DNA of 26,476 bases, from the NCBI GenBank assembly GCA_013375475.1, contig JABXKD010000051.1, positions 1 to 26,476 on the forward strand, in the 5' to 3' direction. The number at the start of each line of letters is the position of its first letter. Position 1 is the first letter of the stretch. Source of the DNA: Promethearchaeota archaeon (GTDB lineage Archaea; Asgardarchaeota; Lokiarchaeia; Sigyniarchaeales; SOKP01). The notes under the pieces were generated by a model. It made no database searches, was not told where the DNA came from, and saw only the letters and a program-made list of their open reading frames with translations. Shown piece by piece: positions 2,424 through 18,713 of the stretch. The position numbers and the translations under genes were made by a program.

Positions 2424-3314
2424 ATGATTTGGAAAACTTCTATAAATAAGATGACGGGTACTAAGTACCCATTAATTATGGCCGCATTTGCTGGCTTAGG
2501 TAGAACCGAATTTGCTTCATCATTTTCGAATGCTGGGGGTTTGGGGATTATTACTGGTTTAAATTATAAAATTGGTAATTTCAAATCAGAGCTTATAAAG
2601 ATGAGAGAATTGACAGATAAACCTTTTGGGGTTAATTTTACCGTCTTACCTCCGGGAGTAAGAGAATTCGATCCTCTTAGCAATATTTCCAAAGAAGATT
2701 ACTTAAAATATCTGGAAATTGCTATTGATGACGGTGTAGAAGTTTTTACTACCTCTGCGTATCAAGCAAATCATCTAGGGGAAAGAATAAAAGAAGCAGG
2801 GTGTTATTGGTTTCACAAATGTGCTTTACTTAGGCATGCAATTACGGCAGAAAGAGCTGGAGCAGATGCTGTTACTTTGATAGGAATGGAATCATCGGGA
2901 TTTAAAAACCCTTTCCAACATACTACTTTAATCAATATCACTTTAGCTAAACGACTACTAAAAACACCATTAATTGCAGCAGGCGGAATCGGTGATGCGC
3001 GTGGATTCTTAGGGGCATTAGGTATGGGCGCTGAGGGGGTTTGTTTAGGTTCAGCGATTCTTACGACGAAAGAAAGCCCTGCTTCTCAAGAAAGGAAAGA
3101 AGGATGGCTAGAATCAGATGTACTTTCTGAAGAATACCATAAACAATTATATCATCGAGAATTAAAAGGTACGAGAGTACTCTCAGTAGCTACCGCACAC
3201 CAGAAAAAAAGTATCTCCATTCATGAATTCATTGAGGGCATGATGGTTGAAGCCTCAGAAATATTAATATCATGGGGCTTTAAAGAAGATCAATTTACGA
3301 TTCTACCAGAATAA
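2424..3314 (+). CDS. Nitronate monooxygenase / FabK-like FMN-dependent oxidoreductase
   Basis: KYPLIMA, SNAGGLG, LTDKPFGVN, AERAGAD, PLIAAGGIGDARG and GAEGVCLGS motifs. ATG 2424 preferred over TTG 2406 because it avoids overlap with the upstream gene. Confidence 0.88.
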   Translation: MIWKTSINKMTGTKYPLIMAAFAGLGRTEFASSFSNAGGLGIITGLNYKIGNFKSELIKMRELTDKPFGVNFTVLPPGVREFDPLSNISKEDYLKYLEIAIDDGVEVFTTSAYQANHLGERIKEAGCYWFHKCALLRHAITAERAGADAVTLIGMESSGFKNPFQHTTLINITLAKRLLKTPLIAAGGIGDARGFLGALGMGAEGVCLGSAILTTKESPASQERKEGWLESDVLSEEYHKQLYHRELKGTRVLSVATAHQKKSISIHEFIEGMMVEASEILISWGFKEDQFTILPE

Positions 3315-3437
3315 ATAAAGAAGATTGGACTAACTTTTTTTATGCCTTTAATTTGATTAGGATTAATTATAAATAGAAATAAAAAGTAAACTATGTAAAT
3401 CTATGCATTAAGATTGATATTAGATTAATGAGGTAAG

Positions 3438-4649
3438 ATGAAAATGTCAAATGAGTCAAAAGTATATTGGGCATCACCAAATGAAGTTGCGGCATTGAAT
3501 AACAATTCAAAAAATATGGTTACTAATAAATTAGTAAAAACTCGATTAATTTTAGATAAAATATTAGATAACATTAACCCTGGAGATCAGGTTGCTATTA
3601 AAGTTCATGTAGGAGAGGCTCAAAATACACATTATTTACGTCACGATTTTATTCATGAAACAGTCAAAGCAGTTAAATCATTAGGTGGAATTCCAACCTT
3701 GATTGAGACTCAAGGAGGAGGAAATCATCTTCAAAGTATTGAAATCTGTGAGAATTACTCAATTTGTATTGGACATCGAAAAAATGCTATAGAGCATCAA
3801 GAAATTGCTAAGTTGCACGGATATGATGAATCAATCGTTGGCGCTCCACTCAAATTTATTGATGGGGAAAAAGGAATTAAAGGAGAAATTGTAGAAATAG
3901 AGGGTATCACCTTAAAAAAAGTTTCAGTTGGGAAGGATCTCTTTAACTACGATAAACTTGTTGTTGTTTCTCACTTTAAAGGTCACCCTCAAGCAGGTTT
4001 TGGTGGCGCTTTGAAACAACTTGGAATTGGATGTGTAACCAAACACAACAAGCACTTAGCCCACATGGTAGAAATGCTGACGATTAACGAACGAAGATGC
4101 GATATTTCTCAGTGCAAACAGGAATGTGTTGGTTCGTGCCCGGTACAAGCAATTACTATTGAAAATGAGAAAGCTGTAATAAACTCTGATCTATGTTATG
4201 GATGCTTTATATGTACCCAGCATTGCCCAGTTAAACGTGCCATTAAAAGACCAAAGATGAATGAGATTGATGAATTTATCGATCGTTTCATTGATAGTGC
4301 AACAGCAGTTATTAATTCTTTCCATTCAGAAAATATTCGCTATATTAATTTTGCCTTGGATATACCTCTAATGTGTGATTGTGTAGCAAATCCAGGGATG
4401 GCTGTTGTGCCGGATCTAGGAATATTTGGGTCTTCTGATCCTGTTGCGATTGATAAAGCTTGTTTTGACGCGGAAATTGAAGCTCCTGGGCTCCCAATTT
4501 TAAAAGAGGATGGACAATGGACAAAGCCTATAGAGCAGGGTGTTGAGAAGTTCAAAGCAATGATGGGAACGTTACACCCTATTCGTCAATTTGAAGCCGC
4601 TGTACAAAATAAAATCGGCTCAACTACTTATGAATTAATCCAGATTTGA
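3438..4649 (+). CDS. DUF362 domain protein with inserted 2x[4Fe-4S] ferredoxin
   Basis: VAIKVHVGE, SHFKGH..GFGGALKQLGIGC, CDC and SSDPVAIDKA motifs; Cys clusters CDISQCKQECVGSCP and CYGCFICTQHCP; GAGGT SD at 3430-3434. Confidence 0.9.
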   Translation: MKMSNESKVYWASPNEVAALNNNSKNMVTNKLVKTRLILDKILDNINPGDQVAIKVHVGEAQNTHYLRHDFIHETVKAVKSLGGIPTLIETQGGGNHLQSIEICENYSICIGHRKNAIEHQEIAKLHGYDESIVGAPLKFIDGEKGIKGEIVEIEGITLKKVSVGKDLFNYDKLVVVSHFKGHPQAGFGGALKQLGIGCVTKHNKHLAHMVEMLTINERRCDISQCKQECVGSCPVQAITIENEKAVINSDLCYGCFICTQHCPVKRAIKRPKMNEIDEFIDRFIDSATAVINSFHSENIRYINFALDIPLMCDCVANPGMAVVPDLGIFGSSDPVAIDKACFDAEIEAPGLPILKEDGQWTKPIEQGVEKFKAMMGTLHPIRQFEAAVQNKIGSTTYELIQI

Positions 4650-11465: not shown

Positions 11466-12785
11466 GTGTCTAATATCAATCAAAAAGTTATTGATAGCTT
11501 AATTAAATTATTAACTCAATTTATTGAGCGAAAGACTGGCACTTTCTCTATTAAAAATCGCAGTAATGCTGAGTTAGTTCATTATTATTACGAGATCCTC
11601 CGATATTGGAACAAAATCAATTTCATTTTAAAGCGAAAGCTTAAATTTTCTAAAAATTCACATGTTTCTAATAGGTATAGTATTGCTAAGTATCTAATTG
11701 CTATTTATCGAATCGTCTGGGAGAAGGAAAATGTTATAAAAGTAGGTAAAGAACTTAAATTCATTGAAGCGGAACTAAATCTTATAAAAAACCTTAAATC
11801 TTTTTCTTGGGAGCAAACATTAATTGGAGTAAAAGAGATTGAAAGGTTAAGTCTAGAAATCGCAATTCCAACTTTTTTAATTAATAAACTAGCAACTGTA
11901 ATGGATTTAGAAACTATTAGAGCAAATATTAAATCAATGGATGGTAGGGAGAGGAAAGAACGATTATATTTTCGATTTAATGATTTACTTTTTGATAAAA
12001 ACCTACAAGATTCATTAGACTTTTTTTTGCAGAATTTAAAAGAACAAGGAATTAAGGCTAAACTCGATACACATTTCTCAAATATTTTTTATACAACATT
12101 AAAAAATAAAAAGAAAATCCTTCTGAACAGATTTTATAAAGAAGGAAAACTCGTTATACAGGATAAGGCTTCTTTTGCGGTAGCCCAACTTTTAGAACCT
12201 CAAGCAAATGAGTTGATATGCGATATATGTGCTGCTCCTGGAATAAAGACTAGTATAATTGCTCAACTTTCTCAAAATCAGGCAATAGTTATAGCTAACG
12301 ACTTCAACAGATCGCGAGTAAGTGTAATGAAACCGCTTTTAAGAAAGTTAAACGTATCAAACACTAATCTATTGAATTCAGATGGTATTAAATTACCCAT
12401 TAGATTTACCAACTTCTTCGATAAGATTTTATTAGATGCACCTTGCACCGGAAGTGGAACATTTTCGACAAATCCCGAACTTAAATGGCGACAAAACGAA
12501 GGATTCCTACACCAAAATCTTGTGCTCCAAGAAAAGTTACTTAAAAGCGCTACTAATTTATTAAAACCATCTGGAATTCTTGTTTATTCTACATGTAGCC
12601 TTTATCCCGAGGAAGGAGAGTATCAAGTTTTAAAAATTTTAAACCATTTTAAGCCAATGGAGCTTCCAGAGTGGATATCTCCTAGCTACAAGATTGACCT
12701 ACAGCACATTCCTGGAACAGGAAGATTCTTTCCGGCAATCCACCAGACGAAAGGATTTTTTATCGCAAAATTCAAAAAAAAATAA
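11466..12785 (+). CDS. RsmB/NOP2/Fmu-family RNA m5C methyltransferase
   Basis: IQDKAS, DICAAPGIKT, FDKILLDAPCTGSG, LVYSTCS (both catalytic Cys present) and GFFIAK; helical N-terminal domain. Confidence 0.92.
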   Translation: MSNINQKVIDSLIKLLTQFIERKTGTFSIKNRSNAELVHYYYEILRYWNKINFILKRKLKFSKNSHVSNRYSIAKYLIAIYRIVWEKENVIKVGKELKFIEAELNLIKNLKSFSWEQTLIGVKEIERLSLEIAIPTFLINKLATVMDLETIRANIKSMDGRERKERLYFRFNDLLFDKNLQDSLDFFLQNLKEQGIKAKLDTHFSNIFYTTLKNKKKILLNRFYKEGKLVIQDKASFAVAQLLEPQANELICDICAAPGIKTSIIAQLSQNQAIVIANDFNRSRVSVMKPLLRKLNVSNTNLLNSDGIKLPIRFTNFFDKILLDAPCTGSGTFSTNPELKWRQNEGFLHQNLVLQEKLLKSATNLLKPSGILVYSTCSLYPEEGEYQVLKILNHFKPMELPEWISPSYKIDLQHIPGTGRFFPAIHQTKGFFIAKFKKK

Positions 12786-12827: not shown

Positions 12828-13637
12828 ATAACTGGAACTAAGTATTGGACCGTAGGACAAATTGACGCGACAGGAGTTAGAGGACCCCACGAGAAGGAAT
12901 TTGAAGATATTAGTAAATCAAAATATTCCCTTTTCGTTGATATTAACATGGCTACGCTGAAAAAGATAATAACTGAAGATATTGGAGGGAAAATTGAAAA
13001 CATTGGATTAAACGAAGATTGGACGATCACCTTAGAAATGTTCCCTGAAGTAAATATTCATTTAGCCTATTCGTATTTTGGCGATGAATTTGGGGATGGC
13101 ATTACAGCTGAGTTTAAGTGTTATTTTTCTGGAGAAAGAGCGATAATCGTACCCGGTGAAGATAGCGTAACATATGTTGACATTATCTTTGATTTTATAG
13201 AACGAATGATTAATCATAAAGATCCTTTTGAGAAATCTTATGCGACAAAAACAGATTTAATGAAGAAGGTATTAATCCAACGCATCGAGCCGTTTACCTT
13301 ATTAAAAGATAGCGATCAGAACAAACTTGCTTCTTTTCTAGGTGCTAAAGTCTGGAATACAGAAAATGGCTGGAGAATCAAAAAAGAGGTTTTTCCGGGA
13401 ATTTTTATTGAACTAACATACGATATACAAGGGAAACTAGATATCGCATATAAAGGTGTAACTCTTTCAAAAAAAATTGGTAGTTATCATATGGAATTTT
13501 TAGGTATTTTCCTAATCAATCATGTTCTTCGATATATTACGTTAAATAATCTAGATAAGAAATTGCCAGATATTTGCTATATTATGTTTTCGAGGTATTT
13601 CACAAAAATGAAGAATTGGAAACATAACCTTATGTAA
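12828..13637 (+). CDS. Protein with two tandem DUF3786-like repeats; probable ATA start
   Basis: LEMFPEVNIHLAYSYFGDEF...ED matches my recollection of the DUF3786 pattern; a second copy reads KEVFPGIFIELTY. The frame is open from 12816 and ATA 12828 lies 7 nt after AAGGTGA. The first ATG is at 12948. Confidence 0.65.
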   Translation: MTGTKYWTVGQIDATGVRGPHEKEFEDISKSKYSLFVDINMATLKKIITEDIGGKIENIGLNEDWTITLEMFPEVNIHLAYSYFGDEFGDGITAEFKCYFSGERAIIVPGEDSVTYVDIIFDFIERMINHKDPFEKSYATKTDLMKKVLIQRIEPFTLLKDSDQNKLASFLGAKVWNTENGWRIKKEVFPGIFIELTYDIQGKLDIAYKGVTLSKKIGSYHMEFLGIFLINHVLRYITLNNLDKKLPDICYIMFSRYFTKMKNWKHNLM

Positions 13638-13673
13638 ATAATTCATGAAAAATATAAAAAATTAGAAAAAAAA

Positions 13674-14228
13674 CTAGTTAACTGTCCATAAAACAGTTCT
13701 ACCTTGTTTTCTTGCGCGTTTAACTTTTCTAGAACTCTCTAAGTCTGCCATGACCTTCCAAATCTGTGAATTACTTAGTTTAAAATACTTTCTTAATTCT
13801 GGGGTAGACATTTCTACACCGCTCAGTAGATTTACGATTAATCGTTTCATTTCTTCAATCGTGTTTTCATTAGATTCAACTGGGACATCGTTTTCTACTT
13901 CGGTAATATCCATCTCGTGAATAATTCTAGTTGCAATCTTGTTAAGTTGTTTAATACTATTATCAATTCCTTGTGGTTTCATAAATAAACAACAGAGTTC
14001 TAAGTCATTCGGGAATGCCACGATGTAAAACTTATCGTACAAAATCGCTCTTGGTTTTTTTCCCGCGTTACCTCCTCGAAAAGCTAAATAAAAATTCATT
14101 GCAAAATCATCTAATTTCATGAGATTTGTAGAGCTTCCATATTCTTTTTTCCATTTAAGGAAAGGGCCGTCTATCATATCGAATCCTATTAAAGCTGCGC
14201 CAAAAAGTTCATTTTCATTGAAATTCAT
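13674..14228 (-). CDS. Longin (uDENN-like) domain fused to a C-terminal winged helix-turn-helix
   Basis: N-terminal LIGFDMIDGP hairpin and a predicted beta-beta-alpha-beta-beta-beta-alpha pattern; acidic linker; wHTH MSTPELRKYFKLSNSQIWKVMADLESSRKVKR...GRTVLW. GAGGT SD lies inside the GTPase gene. Confidence 0.72.
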   Translation of the reverse strand: MNFNENELFGAALIGFDMIDGPFLKWKKEYGSSTNLMKLDDFAMNFYLAFRGGNAGKKPRAILYDKFYIVAFPNDLELCCLFMKPQGIDNSIKQLNKIATRIIHEMDITEVENDVPVESNENTIEEMKRLIVNLLSGVEMSTPELRKYFKLSNSQIWKVMADLESSRKVKRARKQGRTVLWTVN

Positions 14229-14754
14229 CTTTTTTTGACCTCTTTCTTATTACAATTTGATTTAATTCTTTTCTTATAATATCCATTAATTTAAGTCTTT
14301 CACTCGGGTTAATAGCTGTAAGCCCATACGTTTTAATGTGAAGAATATTTTCCACTCTTTCGGGAGTCATTCGACCATCGTTTTTTTTAAGATCTTGTTT
14401 ATTTGCGATTGCAACTATTGGACATTCTTCATCAACAAAATGAGTAGCGTAATTGATTAATTCTCTAGAATTTAAAACATTCCTAGGAGTAGAATCAGTT
14501 ACTACAAAAAGGACATCTGAGCCTAATAGATAATCTCTGGAATAAGTTTTTAGGTAGCTTTGTTGACCCCCAAAATCCCAAATACGGATATTAAAATCGT
14601 CTAGTTTAATGGTCTTTAAATCAAATCCATGAGTGGGAAAATAAAATTTATCAATAAAATCTTTTGAAAGGAGCCTTAACATAGTAGTTTTTCCAACTGC
14701 GGGCGAACCTATGAATGTAACTTTCATTAATTTTGAAATTTCCGAACTTAGCAT
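14215..14754 (-). CDS. Ras-superfamily small GTPase, Arf-related
   Basis: G1 GSPAVGKTT, G2 PTHGF, G3 WDFGGQ, G4 NKQD, G5-like LTA. Confidence 0.93.
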   Translation of the reverse strand: MLSSEISKLMKVTFIGSPAVGKTTMLRLLSKDFIDKFYFPTHGFDLKTIKLDDFNIRIWDFGGQQSYLKTYSRDYLLGSDVLFVVTDSTPRNVLNSRELINYATHFVDEECPIVAIANKQDLKKNDGRMTPERVENILHIKTYGLTAINPSERLKLMDIIRKELNQIVIRKRSKKDEFQ

Positions 14755-14760
14755 TACTTA

Positions 14761-14773
14761 TTTCGTTACGAAA
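14761..14773. promoter_or_regulatory. Palindromic candidate operator TTTCGT-T-ACGAAA upstream of the GTPase operon
   Basis: Perfect 6-1-6 inverted repeat 7-19 nt upstream of ATG 14754, downstream of the TATA-like TTTAAAAA (minus strand, 14780-14787). Confidence 0.5.
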
Positions 14774-14861
14774 AGAATATTTTTAAAGAAAAAATGTGAA
14801 GTCATCTAGATATATCCAAGTAATATATAGATCATATGTTAAAAAATTGAGATTTCTTACC

Positions 14862-16769
14862 TTAGAGAATCGTACTAAATGTAATATTGTAAAAGAATAT
14901 AAGCAAAATAATTGAAAATAATGCTGGGATAATTAAACTGTAAGTAAATAGCCCTTGAGAAACTTTTATGCATTTAAAAAGAGTATTCATAATGACTTCG
15001 AAATATTTCGGATCTCCCCAAATTTTAACCTTTTCGACAACTGAATCATGGTAGTAAAATTCAACTTCTTCTAAATTGTTCTCTGCTTCAACGAGTAAGG
15101 TATCAATTTTTTCTAAAATTTTTTCTAAAGTTATCTTATCCCCTATTGGGCTGTAACCTCGCGGAGAAAATTGTCTTGCAACACTATGAGAATCCGAAGT
15201 TGTTATTTCTCCCCATTCTATTCCTCTATTTTGCAATTTATTAAGTACAAATGAACGAATATCTACATAAGCATTATTAGCATCAAAGTGGATAAGCACT
15301 GTTTTTTGGTTTGAAACGACATCCTTAAAAAGATGAACTACCAAACCACCAGTACCTATTCCATCCTTTTCTGAATATTCAAGCATTAAATCTTTTGCAA
15401 CACCGTATTGGACTGAAATCTTGTTAGAACGATCACTTTTTTTATTAGAAACTAAAAATTTTTCAGAAACAGAGATGAGATCTTTAGCTTCTAGTGATCT
15501 ATTTCTTATTAAGACTTCATCCCCAATTATGGAATTGTGAGAGTCGATAATAATGATTTCTCGATAACCTTTTGCTTTAGCTATTTTCCTAATTTCTTCT
15601 CCAACTTGCATTTGAATATCATCAGAAGGTAAAGGATGTCTTGTTAAAAATACAATAGCAATGTTATTTATATCGATACCTAATAATTTAGCGGAATTAG
15701 ACATATTTCTCGATGTTGTGTTTACTTCTTTGATCCATTCGTTCTTTGAATCTTCTTGAATATACTTTACATCGCTTTCTATTTTGCTCAAAACCTTTTC
15801 AAGTTCTTTCTGAGAGGTTAGATTCAGAGTGTGATCGTTGGTTGTATGGTAAATTGTTGTACCTTTAATGTTCTTGAATAAATCATAAATATGAGCTGGT
15901 AGATCAGAAGAACCACAAGTTTTAAAAGGTCCAAAATGGACTTGAGGAATAACAAATAAACCTTTGATTTTTTTAGTTTTTTCACTTCTTATCGCTAAAT
16001 ATTGGATTTTCACATTTGAATCTACTCCAATTTTATCAAAAAAACTTTCTAGCAACTCATCGTTGCCTTCCGTTAACATGGAAAGCACAAAAGCTCGAAT
16101 GAAAGGATATCCCCCAATCCCAGTTGCTTGTCTGTATATATTACTTACTCGAGATAAACTTCTTGCGTAAGGAATTGCAAAAATAACAGCACACACAGTA
16201 AAAAATAACATAGCTCTAAGGAAAAAAAAGAAGGGGAGTTGTGATGCGAAAATACTATAAAAAGTTATTTCTATAGCAGGTTGTACAAACGCTAATATAA
16301 AGTTGCCATATTTTCCAACTGTAGTGAAAGAAAAATATACTACATAGGTGATGATAAAAGAAATTATTGTGCCAAGAATAAGAAAAACTTCTTGAAAGGC
16401 TGCGTTTCTTAGGAAAATTGCAATAGTTTGACCGATTAAAAGTGAAAGTCCCATTACCCCAGTAAAAAGAGAATTCATTTGAAGTGCCCATCCTTTTGGA
16501 GGTAGAGTTAAGAGAGGTGATTTTTTTGAGTAAAATATAACCGATATTAATACTCCTCCTCCAGAAGTAAAATATATTGTAAGTAAGACATTGGATAAAT
16601 AAAAAAAGTTCCAAATATTGGTTAAAAGTGAATTTAAAATAAAAGATAGGAAACTTATTATACCAGGTAGGCAGAAAAATAATAATAGCGCTGATTTTTT
16701 TGAAGAGAAAAAATCTAAATACGATAAAATCCCGGGAATATGGCGAGTTGGTGGTTGTTGTGCATACAT
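14862..16769 (-). CDS. DUF2070 family membrane protein (predicted membrane-associated hydrolase, neutral-ceramidase-like)
   Basis: ~6 N-terminal TM helices and a C-terminal TM helix; HFGPF..GSSDLP, HTTNDH, DSHNS, FDANN and TSDSH motifs. Confidence 0.88.
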   Translation of the reverse strand: MYAQQPPTRHIPGILSYLDFFSSKKSALLLFFCLPGIISFLSFILNSLLTNIWNFFYLSNVLLTIYFTSGGGVLISVIFYSKKSPLLTLPPKGWALQMNSLFTGVMGLSLLIGQTIAIFLRNAAFQEVFLILGTIISFIITYVVYFSFTTVGKYGNFILAFVQPAIEITFYSIFASQLPFFFFLRAMLFFTVCAVIFAIPYARSLSRVSNIYRQATGIGGYPFIRAFVLSMLTEGNDELLESFFDKIGVDSNVKIQYLAIRSEKTKKIKGLFVIPQVHFGPFKTCGSSDLPAHIYDLFKNIKGTTIYHTTNDHTLNLTSQKELEKVLSKIESDVKYIQEDSKNEWIKEVNTTSRNMSNSAKLLGIDINNIAIVFLTRHPLPSDDIQMQVGEEIRKIAKAKGYREIIIIDSHNSIIGDEVLIRNRSLEAKDLISVSEKFLVSNKKSDRSNKISVQYGVAKDLMLEYSEKDGIGTGGLVVHLFKDVVSNQKTVLIHFDANNAYVDIRSFVLNKLQNRGIEWGEITTSDSHSVARQFSPRGYSPIGDKITLEKILEKIDTLLVEAENNLEEVEFYYHDSVVEKVKIWGDPKYFEVIMNTLFKCIKVSQGLFTYSLIIPALFSIILLIFFYNITFSTIL

Positions 16770-17921: not shown

Positions 17922-18713
17922 ATGTATATAAACATAACTCAACAGTTTGAATTAAATCCAGACGATTTGCATGATCCTATTGTCTTAATCGGGTGGCCTG
18001 GAATTGCTTTAGTAGCTCAATTAGCGATTACATCTATTAAAGACTCGATTAGTGCTAAAAAGTTTTTAGAGATTGAATATTTTGATTTTCCGCCAAAATC
18101 AAATGTTGAAAAGGGGAAAATGGAACTTCCATCAGCTAAAGTTTATTTTAAATCCAGAAAACAAAAGAAAAAACCAGATTTATTTATTTTAACCGCGAAT
18201 TATCAACCTCAAACCTCAGCAGGGGTATTTGAGTTTTCGCAAAAGTTTTGTGAAGAGATGGATAAGTTAACAGAAGGTAAAATCAAAATGTATATCAGTG
18301 CTGGCGCTATGGTAACTGATAAAATAAGAGATGTACCTCTGGTTCATGTTTGCGGGACAGATCAGGAAATTGTTAATTCGTTTTTAAAATATGAAAATAC
18401 GATTCTAATGGAAGTTGGAGTTATTGCGGGAGCAAATGGAATATTACCTGCATGGGCGGGCCAAAAGGGTTATGCTCCCGGTGTATGTTTGTTAGCAGAA
18501 ACATTGCCCCTCCCGATGATGGCTCTAGACCCTCGAGCATCTAAAGCATTACTTGTAATTTTGAAGGAATATTTTAATATTGAGATGAACTTCGACGAGT
18601 TAAATTCAAAAATCGACGAAATGGAACACGTACTTGATACATATAGAAAACAAGCAAATCAATTTATGAAAGGACCTCAAGAGGATCCTGGTTCCGATTC
18701 TTATTTTAGATAA
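17922..18713 (+). CDS. Proteasome assembly chaperone PAC2 family protein
   Basis: LIGWPGIALVAQLA, DFPP, YQP, IAGANG, CLLAET, DPRAS and a C-terminal coiled region ending SYFR. Confidence 0.9.
   Translation: MYINITQQFELNPDDLHDPIVLIGWPGIALVAQLAITSIKDSISAKKFLEIEYFDFPPKSNVEKGKMELPSAKVYFKSRKQKKKPDLFILTANYQPQTSAGVFEFSQKFCEEMDKLTEGKIKMYISAGAMVTDKIRDVPLVHVCGTDQEIVNSFLKYENTILMEVGVIAGANGILPAWAGQKGYAPGVCLLAETLPLPMMALDPRASKALLVILKEYFNIEMNFDELNSKIDEMEHVLDTYRKQANQFMKGPQEDPGSDSYFR

Follow-up and report, generated by a model that had tools for sequence, protein, structure and literature searches.

Small GTPases number in the dozens in Asgard genomes, and so do longin or roadblock proteins. Can one of these GTPases be matched with one of these regulators, and what would such a pair do? 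In the cultured strain MK-D1, according to Tran et al. (PMC10933270), genes of the two kinds do not as a rule share operons, so that GTPases and regulators are impossible to match from genome layout. A gene pair in the genome of a Promethearchaeota archaeon (Lokiarchaeia; Sigyniarchaeales; SOKP01; assembly GCA_013375475.1) is an exception to this rule. It lies on contig JABXKD010000051.1, of which we analysed positions 1-26,476 (hereafter the window), and consists of a gene for an Arf-family GTPase followed by a gene for a protein of 184 amino acids (hereafter the partner), in which a predicted longin-type domain is fused to a predicted winged helix-turn-helix (wHTH).

We propose that the two proteins form a cognate pair, that the wHTH of the partner binds an element next to the pair's own promoter, and that the state of the GTPase is in this way coupled to transcription. 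We give this statement, taken as a whole, a probability of about one half. The starting points are what we observe, namely the anatomy of the genes, the predicted folds, the conservation of motifs, the order of genes, and a cis element that is unique in the genome.

The gene pair and its conservation

Both genes are on the reverse strand, that of the GTPase at 14215-14754 (179 amino acids) and that of the partner at 13674-14228, and their open reading frames (ORFs) have 14 nt in common (14215-14228). A GAGGT Shine-Dalgarno sequence (14238-14242, reverse strand) lies in the last part of the GTPase gene, with 9 nt separating it from the ATG of the partner, and most loci of f1, the family of the window, have a GGAGG-type Shine-Dalgarno ahead of the partner start. 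Upstream of the GTPase ATG no Shine-Dalgarno can be read from the sequence, which suggests that this is the leaderless first gene of the unit. The probable promoter is a TATA-box-like TTTAAAAATA (14778-14787, reverse strand) at -33 to -24 from this ATG, where a T-rich run followed by TTAA or TAAA is preserved across the aligned upstream regions. Directly 3' of the partner stop codon, oligo-T runs of eight, six and five residues (T8, T6, T5; 13648-13673, reverse strand) look like an archaeal oligo-T terminator. TATA-like box, leaderless GTPase gene, partner gene coupled through its Shine-Dalgarno and oligo-T stop would thus make up a single transcription unit. The intact Arf-like GTPase, the overlap and the Shine-Dalgarno inside the GTPase end had been described in an initial annotation of this DNA, with which ORF coordinates and sequence agree.

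RNA-library contigs from four metatranscriptome libraries (three studies) map within 13721-14574, in parts of both genes, and one contig of 112 nt spans the gene junction (14142-14253) with 0 differences. They are weak support for expression, with DNA carry-over possible and a single transcript unproven. None maps to 13400-13684 or 14597-15100, which, with contigs, is uninformative on the transcript end.

The upstream gene is assigned by its sequence to the Arf family. The Pfam model Arf gives 68.7 bits (cut-off 22.3), ahead of Roc and Ras, and Gtr1_RagA stays under its cut-off of 22 with 20.4 bits. The nearest solved relatives are Arl3 and Arl2 (4.8e-16 for Arl3), and a profile of 24 orthologues retrieves Arf or Arl in 59 of the 60 best rows from the PDB. 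Arf proteins are recognized by the motifs G1-G5, with WDxGGQ in G3, and by a motif like VVDS that follows strand 4. The protein has all five G motifs (GSPAVGKT, PTHG, WDFGGQ, NKQD and TAI), as well as VVTDS. The glutamine of WDFGGQ is Q64, and G16, K22, T23, T41, D60, G63 and NKQD are invariant in the 24-sequence alignment. From T41 to D60 there are 19 residues, as there are from T48 to D67 in Arf1, the distance in Ras being longer. About 10 residues, conserved within the window's family, precede strand 1 (MLSSEISKLM); the Arf hallmark described by Vargova et al. is an amphipathic helix at the N-terminus that the interswitch toggle sets free (bioRxiv 10.1101/2024.02.28.582541).

The fusion is widespread in the window's relatives. 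Searches returned 499 relatives of the partner at E 1e-3 or better, nearly all of about 184 amino acids, which reduce to 28 representatives at 50% identity. In a set of 400 genomes from the phylum, 120 of the 134 that belong to family f1 carry the full-length fusion; in the other families of the same order it is found in 13 of 14 (f2), 1 of 1 (f28) and 2 of 4 (f29), and in other orders of the same class in 3 of 3 (f30), 2 of 2 (f31) and 2 of 2 (f32). The rest of the phylum matches only the N-terminal domain.

The GTPase gene accompanies the partner gene in these comparisons, more than chance would allow. In 39 of 50 fetched loci its orthologue is the next gene upstream, head-to-tail, the two being -29 to +49 nt apart. 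It is likewise adjacent upstream in all 12 loci of a further set (7/7 from f30-f32 among them) and adjacent in 79 of 80 loci of named Promethearchaeota-type metagenome-assembled genomes (MAGs), the remaining one being cut by a contig end; these three sets overlap in genomes and have related members, and their counts are not independent. All loci in which the partner bears a wHTH, from three orders of one Asgard class, have it head-to-tail with the GTPase gene. The initial annotation had proposed a synteny survey as a check, and the pair is indeed conserved together.

Loci lacking the wHTH are informative as well. Families f9, f10 and f16 keep the coupling to the GTPase gene, but the C-terminus of the protein differs. 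A tail of about 10 arginines replaces the wHTH in L035 (at 3290-3682 on the reverse strand) and in P0146, and other GTPase-linked homologues (L034, L036-L038, P0141 and P0143) have a C-terminal domain of about 70 amino acids with a GLGxKR motif, which resembles a helix-hairpin-helix. For P0141, ESM-Atlas clusters of helix-hairpin-helix and RNA-polymerase alpha-CTD type (0.77-0.82) provide a lead only. The 11 of the 50 fetched loci in which no GTPase gene adjoins (L039-L049; f8, f15, f18 and f19) encode longin-only proteins of 112-150 amino acids.

The Arf model has 72 matches in the host genome, a number that stands for small GTPases in general because the same model also fires in 12 of 14 control genomes. 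Many of these matches lie in open frames of 300-590 amino acids, which are multidomain small-GTPase proteins; such a large repertoire is typical of Asgard genomes. The partner family is single-copy in the host genome, which compared with these 72 matches points to one specific pairing and not to a general habit. We regard a cognate relation between the GTPase and the longin-type partner as very probable.

Two loci deserve a separate mention. In L141 (G259:C141; 670-1215 and 1489-1953, forward strand) a second, shorter copy of the partner gene (E 1.2e-40) comes after the first one, downstream of the GTPase gene, and is a local duplication. Another contig, labelled as a MAG of a Nanopelagicaceae bacterium (L054, DATKTW010000082.1), encodes a partner at 85% identity to the window protein and is probably mis-binned or mislabelled.

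The longin-type domain and its hairpin

If the pair is cognate, the N-terminal domain of the partner (amino acids 1-112, with the fold at 8-112; 13893-14228, reverse strand) is the part expected to meet the GTPase. AlphaFold2 (AF2) models of the whole partner, from 21 sequences, have two domains and a badly modelled acidic linker between them, with a predicted local distance difference test score (pLDDT) of 74.5; for the N-terminal domain alone, from 22 diverse sequences, pLDDT rises to 80.2. The predicted strands are 8-17, 21-29, 60-63 (or 61-63), 68-74 and 77-83, and the helices 39-51 and 92-112 (or 89-111). The resulting order (strand-strand-helix-strand-strand-strand-helix), with no N-terminal helix and a long C-terminal one, matches the longin variant described in PMC10933270, which lacks the N-terminal helix of roadblocks and has a C-terminal helix at its end.

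When the domain model was compared with 48,161 chains by VIA-align, roadblock or longin complexes made up, by title, 41 of the 50 best rows. They include LAMTOR, MglB, Asgard roadblocks, Mon1-Ccz1, BLOC-3, TRAPP, adaptor sigma/mu, C9orf72-SMCR8, CPLANE and VAMP7. Another 5 of the 50 are chains of about 95 residues from dynein or axoneme entries. With the whole partner model, Synbindin reaches Z 9.4. The assignment of a longin-type fold rests on this match list, uniform and of moderate strength. Several results weigh against it. The Z scores of the 50 best rows lie at 5.6-7.9 and never reach 8, which is moderate only, and a Foldseek search with the N-terminal domain alone returned nothing at E 1e-3 or better. 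Sequence models likewise do not tie the domain to longin, roadblock, NPR2 or C9orf72: Pfam gave nothing for the domain of the single protein and, for 22 family members with E up to 10, nothing beyond three chance rows, NCBIfam had no match to the partner, phmmer found no PDB sequence for it, and the family profile found only a MarR chain at E 0.13.

The domain has a hairpin with the motif F16-D17-x3-G21-P22, in which G21-P22 is placed at the turn from strand 1 into strand 2. Residues D17, G21, P22 and P59 are invariant in 22 diverse sequences down to 17% identity, and Y47, F50 and G53 are near-invariant in the same set. The spacing is that of W33-D34...G38-P39 in C9orf72 (numbering of PMC12290439). 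A structural match to chain A of the C9orf72-SMCR8 entry 7o2w (7o2w_A, Z 6.8; the match list names the entry and not the protein of the chain) pairs model residue 6 with chain residue 23; if chain A is C9orf72, this offset, taken from the start of the aligned range and not from a residue-level alignment, would put D17 on 34 and G21-P22 on 38-39. In the eukaryotic longins of GTPase-activating proteins (GAPs), namely C9orf72, SMCR8, FLCN and NPRL2, the D...GP hairpin faces the nucleotide pocket of Arf and Rag GTPases (PMC12290439). The FDxxxGP hairpin in a longin-type N-terminus, which the initial annotation had recognized, is thus borne out by the AF2 fold and its mostly roadblock/longin neighbours.

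Does the partner then act as a GAP of the kind found in GATOR1 or FLCN? The loop between strands 4 and 5 (FPNDLE), which by topology adjoins the hairpin and, as judged from the fold, is where an arginine finger would sit, has variable columns (N/K/H/R/Q and others) and no conserved arginine. In homologues linked to a GTPase gene, position 60 has L, T, M or V instead of R60. An arginine-finger GAP role of the GATOR1/FLCN type is therefore unlikely, in line with what had first been concluded from the single sequence. The lack of a finger makes the partner more likely an effector, a GEF (guanine-nucleotide exchange factor), or a finger-free GAP like MglB, and the D...GP hairpin longin would in each case bind the GTPase in a manner that depends on its nucleotide state. 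The characterized roadblock/longin platforms covered in PMC3521125 and PMC10933270 all contact the switch face of their GTPase. A complex prediction for two longin domains and the GTPase, each with an alignment of its own, gave an interaction prediction score from aligned errors (ipSAE) of 0.00 in both runs (mark 0.32), which counts neither way.

The winged helix and the upstream element

What would the GTPase control through such a partner? An acidic linker (amino acids 105-125, net charge -8) leads to a basic C-terminus (126-184, net +8, isoelectric point 10.7) with a basic wing, which ends in GRTVLWTVN. The wHTH itself (amino acids 121-184; 13677-13868, reverse strand) is modelled by AF2 with helices at 121-135, 142-149 and 153-165 and wing strands at 169-175 and 178-183. 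Charge counts and model thus support the acidic linker and basic wHTH of the initial annotation. In structure searches PH1932, NolR, MarR/ArsR proteins and Z-alpha domains match it with Z 9-11.3 over 57-66 aligned residues. Three homologues at about 35% identity (P0129, P0131 and P0133) score above the gathering thresholds of HTH families in Pfam: HTH_DeoR with 31.7 and 29.9 (cut-off 21), HTH_11 with 27.4 and 32.6 (cut-off 25), HTH_5 with 32 (cut-off 22) and HTH_24 with 24.4 (cut-off 21.9). Homologues of other orders have a DeoR-like 'TIRRYL..LE..G..KR'.

The second line of evidence, which the initial annotation does not mention, is a conserved 30-nt element (14808-14837, reverse strand) at -83 to -54 from the GTPase ATG. 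Its consensus in family f1 is about RTAATAY-N4-ATATTAY-N3-GATTCATAT, and the positions kept best make up AT-rich half-sites with a spacing of about 10 nt, roughly one helical turn. It aligns in 27 of 29 upstream regions of this family and is conserved whichever gene adjoins upstream. A position weight matrix (PWM) of the 27 sites, run over both strands of the 3.92-Mb genome, scored the window's own site at 21.8 bits and the runner-up at 15.8, with just 9 genome windows at 12 bits or more; the own site is within the training set, whose sequences are related.

Seventeen loci outside the training set served as a held-out test, 12 of them with a wHTH partner and 5 without. In this small sample of related loci, 6 of the 12 with a wHTH have their best locus-wide hit upstream, on the strand of the gene, at 12 bits or more: L050 (16.8 bits at -73), L141 (16.1 at -76), L133 (12.8 at -79), L135 (12.3 at -74), L137 (12.5 at -83) and L131 (15.6 at -28 of the called start). 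The orders that share the element in these loci have proteins just 30-40% identical. None of the 5 loci without a wHTH (L034-L038) has the element, their maximum being 6.1 bits anywhere and 3.6 upstream. A motif resembling the element had been seen by eye upstream of the f16 loci (L036-L038); with PWM scores of at most 3.6 bits, it is chance in AT-rich DNA.

An element that is kept across orders, and only together with the wHTH, is what autoregulation by the partner predicts, and the partner wHTH would most likely bind this candidate site. The HTH hits of the homologues, the basic charge and a cis element that tracks the wHTH together tip the balance slightly towards DNA binding by the partner. 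The proposed sequence of events would then be that a wHTH of the prokaryotic DNA-binding type binds this element, some 20 nt upstream of the operon's TATA box, and that the state of the GTPase feeds back on, or couples to, transcription of the pair. Such a position would suit an archaeal activator better than a repressor.

Against this stands a series of observations. The wHTH of the window protein itself reaches only 11.9 bits with HTH_11 (cut-off 25), and its recognition helix reads SQIWKVM, the DeoR-like TIRR being gone. Of the 12 held-out wHTH loci, 6 show no hit of 12 bits on the expected strand: the 13.6 bits of L033 fall on the other strand, within an over-long ORF call, L132 and L136 have 9.2 bits at -91 and 5.1 bits at -86, and L031, L032 and L134 have no element by PWM. 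The scan of the 3.92-Mb genome returned no second site, so that no regulon is visible, and some other factor may be the binder of the element. The binding of the GTPase to the longin, the binding of DNA and the direction of regulation are, moreover, steps that we infer. Finally, the fold by itself is undecided between a DNA-binding and a protein-binding winged helix, because winged helices that bind proteins score nearly as high: ESCRT-II has Z 9.1, APC2 9.2 and Rpa2 9.7, and cullin winged helices also fall within 9.0-9.7 against residues 120-184.

This last point opens the way to the best of the alternatives, in which the partner is purely a regulator of the GTPase of the NPRL2/NPRL3 type, as GAP co-factor or GEF, and its winged helix serves for protein-protein contacts or dimerization, like the C-terminal wHTH domains of Npr2/Npr3 or the winged helices of ESCRT-II, and does not bind DNA. 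Searched against the PDB with Foldseek, the whole model has its best matches in chains of 363-461 residues from GATOR1 entries (9v0j_A at E 2.5e-4, 9o5d_D and 9o5d_C; subunit unnamed), aligned over about 190 columns with both domains in the same order, and the ESM-Atlas cluster nearest to the N-terminal domain carries NPR2 on 19% of its members (score 0.77), which is a lead only. Npr2 and Npr3 themselves consist of a longin and three wHTH domains, according to PMC3521125, whereas the partner has one wHTH and matches neither NPR2 nor NPR3 in Pfam. The divergent homologues above the thresholds of bacterial and archaeal DNA-binding HTH families, the strongly basic wHTH with its wing, and the genome-unique upstream element that tracks it also speak for DNA binding, and we consider a regulator without DNA binding rather improbable.

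One could also imagine that the DNA-bound partner is a tether: as in ParMRC, TubZRC and SegAB, an NTPase gene stands next to the gene of a putative DNA-binding adaptor and a unique upstream cis site, and the adaptor would label a single place on the chromosome and link this place in a GTP-dependent way to the Arf-like GTPase, for example at a membrane, with autoregulation as a by-product. The single strong site in 3.92 Mb, its half-sites about one helical turn apart, the highly conserved single-copy operon, and the finding that the longin carries other polyanion-binding tails elsewhere (poly-arginine in L035 and P0146, and, weakly, helix-hairpin-helix-like) would all fit. Partition-like function is nevertheless very improbable in our view. 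There is one short site and no repeat array, autoregulation accounts equally well for one site ahead of the operon itself, and the GTPase, with its short stretch before strand 1, gives no sign of membrane binding. Moreover, we know of no Arf-family GTPase that forms filaments or gradients.

Scarcely probable is a one-component regulator, with a small-molecule sensor of GAF/PAS type controlling the wHTH as in CodY and the GTPase merely co-regulated: full-length Foldseek does list sensor-wHTH proteins (CodY 5ey2_C at 1.2e-3, CprK and CRP-type) and the PAS chain 7jl6_B is among the neighbours of the N-terminal domain (Z 5.6), but those neighbours are dominated by GTPase-binding roadblock/longin complexes, the invariant hairpin is the GTPase-facing motif of eukaryotic GAP longins, in three orders the two genes overlap or adjoin, and the longin stays linked to the GTPase where another C-terminal domain has taken the place of the wHTH. 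A defence system was rejected, as PADLOC has no family for the partner or for the protein encoded next to it (229 amino acids, described below), and the GTPase returned three weak P-loop rows.

Known systems and flanking genes

The components of the proposed switch have relatives in several described systems. Like the longins with a Gly-Pro (GP) motif in C9orf72-SMCR8-WDR41, FLCN-FNIP and GATOR1 (NPRL2), the partner has a longin-type fold with Gly-Pro at the turn into strand 2; it shares with C9orf72 an aromatic residue and Asp four residues before Gly-Pro, and with C9orf72-SMCR8 an Arf-family GTPase as its client, here a putative one indicated by the operon. Unlike these eukaryotic proteins it has no DENN domain and no match to a sequence model, and it is fused to a wHTH. 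An arginine finger adjoins the GP motif in SMCR8, FLCN and one GATOR1 subunit. Asgard longins of 'FLCN/SMCR8-type' in PMC12290439 also have such a finger, in contrast to the partner, which has no conserved one; the GTPase partners of Asgard GP longins are left open in that paper.

In its layout the partner resembles NPRL2 and NPRL3 of GATOR1/SEACIT, with an N-terminal longin followed by a winged helix. It differs from them in length (184 amino acids against roughly 400-600), in a wHTH resembling prokaryotic DNA-binding ones, and in a client that is Arf-like rather than Rag, and no DEPDC5 partner is known here. Clusters of Asgard orthologous genes (asCOGs) named 'NPRL2-like longin', and fusions to two-component domains, appear in bioRxiv 10.1101/2020.10.19.343400. 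We suggest, tentatively, that in this archaeal lineage, the one nearest to eukaryotes, an Arf GTPase read by a longin of the C9orf72/NPRL2 class, itself fused to a working sequence-specific wHTH, might be a one-step switch from GTPase to DNA and a living antecedent of the NPRL2/NPRL3 layout, whose winged helices would later have lost DNA binding.

Comparable arrangements of genes are found in bacteria. As in MglA-MglB and in the actinobacterial conservons and mfp operons, a GTPase of the Ras superfamily lies beside a roadblock/longin regulator and a predicted HTH protein. In conservons and mfp operons, which are read as G-protein signalling modules, these parts are the GTPase CvnD/MfpB, the roadblock GAP CvnB/MfpD and the HTH-containing DUF742 GEF CvnC/MfpC. 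In a conservon four genes stand together, coding for a protein like a histidine kinase, for a roadblock, for a DUF742 protein and for a GTPase, and bacterial operons of GTPase, roadblock and HTH genes are described in PMC11343762, PMC13343842 and PMC13621833. Here, unlike in conservons, the roadblock-like and HTH parts are in one polypeptide, and the longin variant has a GP hairpin; unlike in MglA systems, the GTPase is Arf-like. We found neither a histidine kinase nor DUF742 among the ORFs of the window, and the likeness is one of logic only. Neighbourhoods of Group 3 MglA also tie a small GTPase to a transcription regulator made of an alpha/beta domain and a wHTH; these are bacterial, have a receiver-like domain instead of a longin, and are likewise a prediction (PMC4316618).

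Much of what surrounds the pair has therefore been published: Arf-related GTPases of Asgard archaea (bioRxiv 10.1101/2024.02.28.582541; PMC11914678), Asgard longins with the GP motif (PMC12290439) or of NPRL2-like type, the combination of longin and wHTH, and conservons. The initial annotation knew of no description of the pairing; in the literature searched this holds for the pair itself, and does not extend to these elements. That literature gave no description of the longin-wHTH fusion family, of its class-wide operon with an Arf GTPase, or of the upstream element, though asCOG tables and Data S1 of PMC12290439 may list the family. The operon thus offers an explicit, conserved and single-copy match of an Arf-like GTPase with a GP-hairpin longin, together with a candidate DNA site, and both binding questions are approachable with a pair of small recombinant proteins and a single oligonucleotide. 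Should the wHTH bind DNA, a GTPase/longin module of eukaryotic type would be wired into transcription control of prokaryotic type, which would bear on the origin of the longin-wHTH layout of NPRL2/3.

Convergent to the partner gene, at 12948-13637 on the forward strand, lies the gene for the protein of 229 amino acids, which has no match in Pfam, NCBIfam or PADLOC. In family f1, tblastn locates it in 28 of 30 loci, each time beyond the partner gene, and it was not found in more distant loci. On the other side, a DUF2070 membrane protein (2.6e-86) is encoded at 14862-16769 (reverse strand), on the same strand as the pair and 107 nt upstream. Of 30 related loci only 13 keep it in this position, so that it probably does not belong to the transcription unit. 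Further away are an RsmB/F-type methyltransferase (11466-12785, forward strand; 6.3e-52) and a PAC2-family protein (17922-18713, forward strand; 1.3e-20), and the remaining genes of the window encode ordinary metabolic enzymes and transporters.

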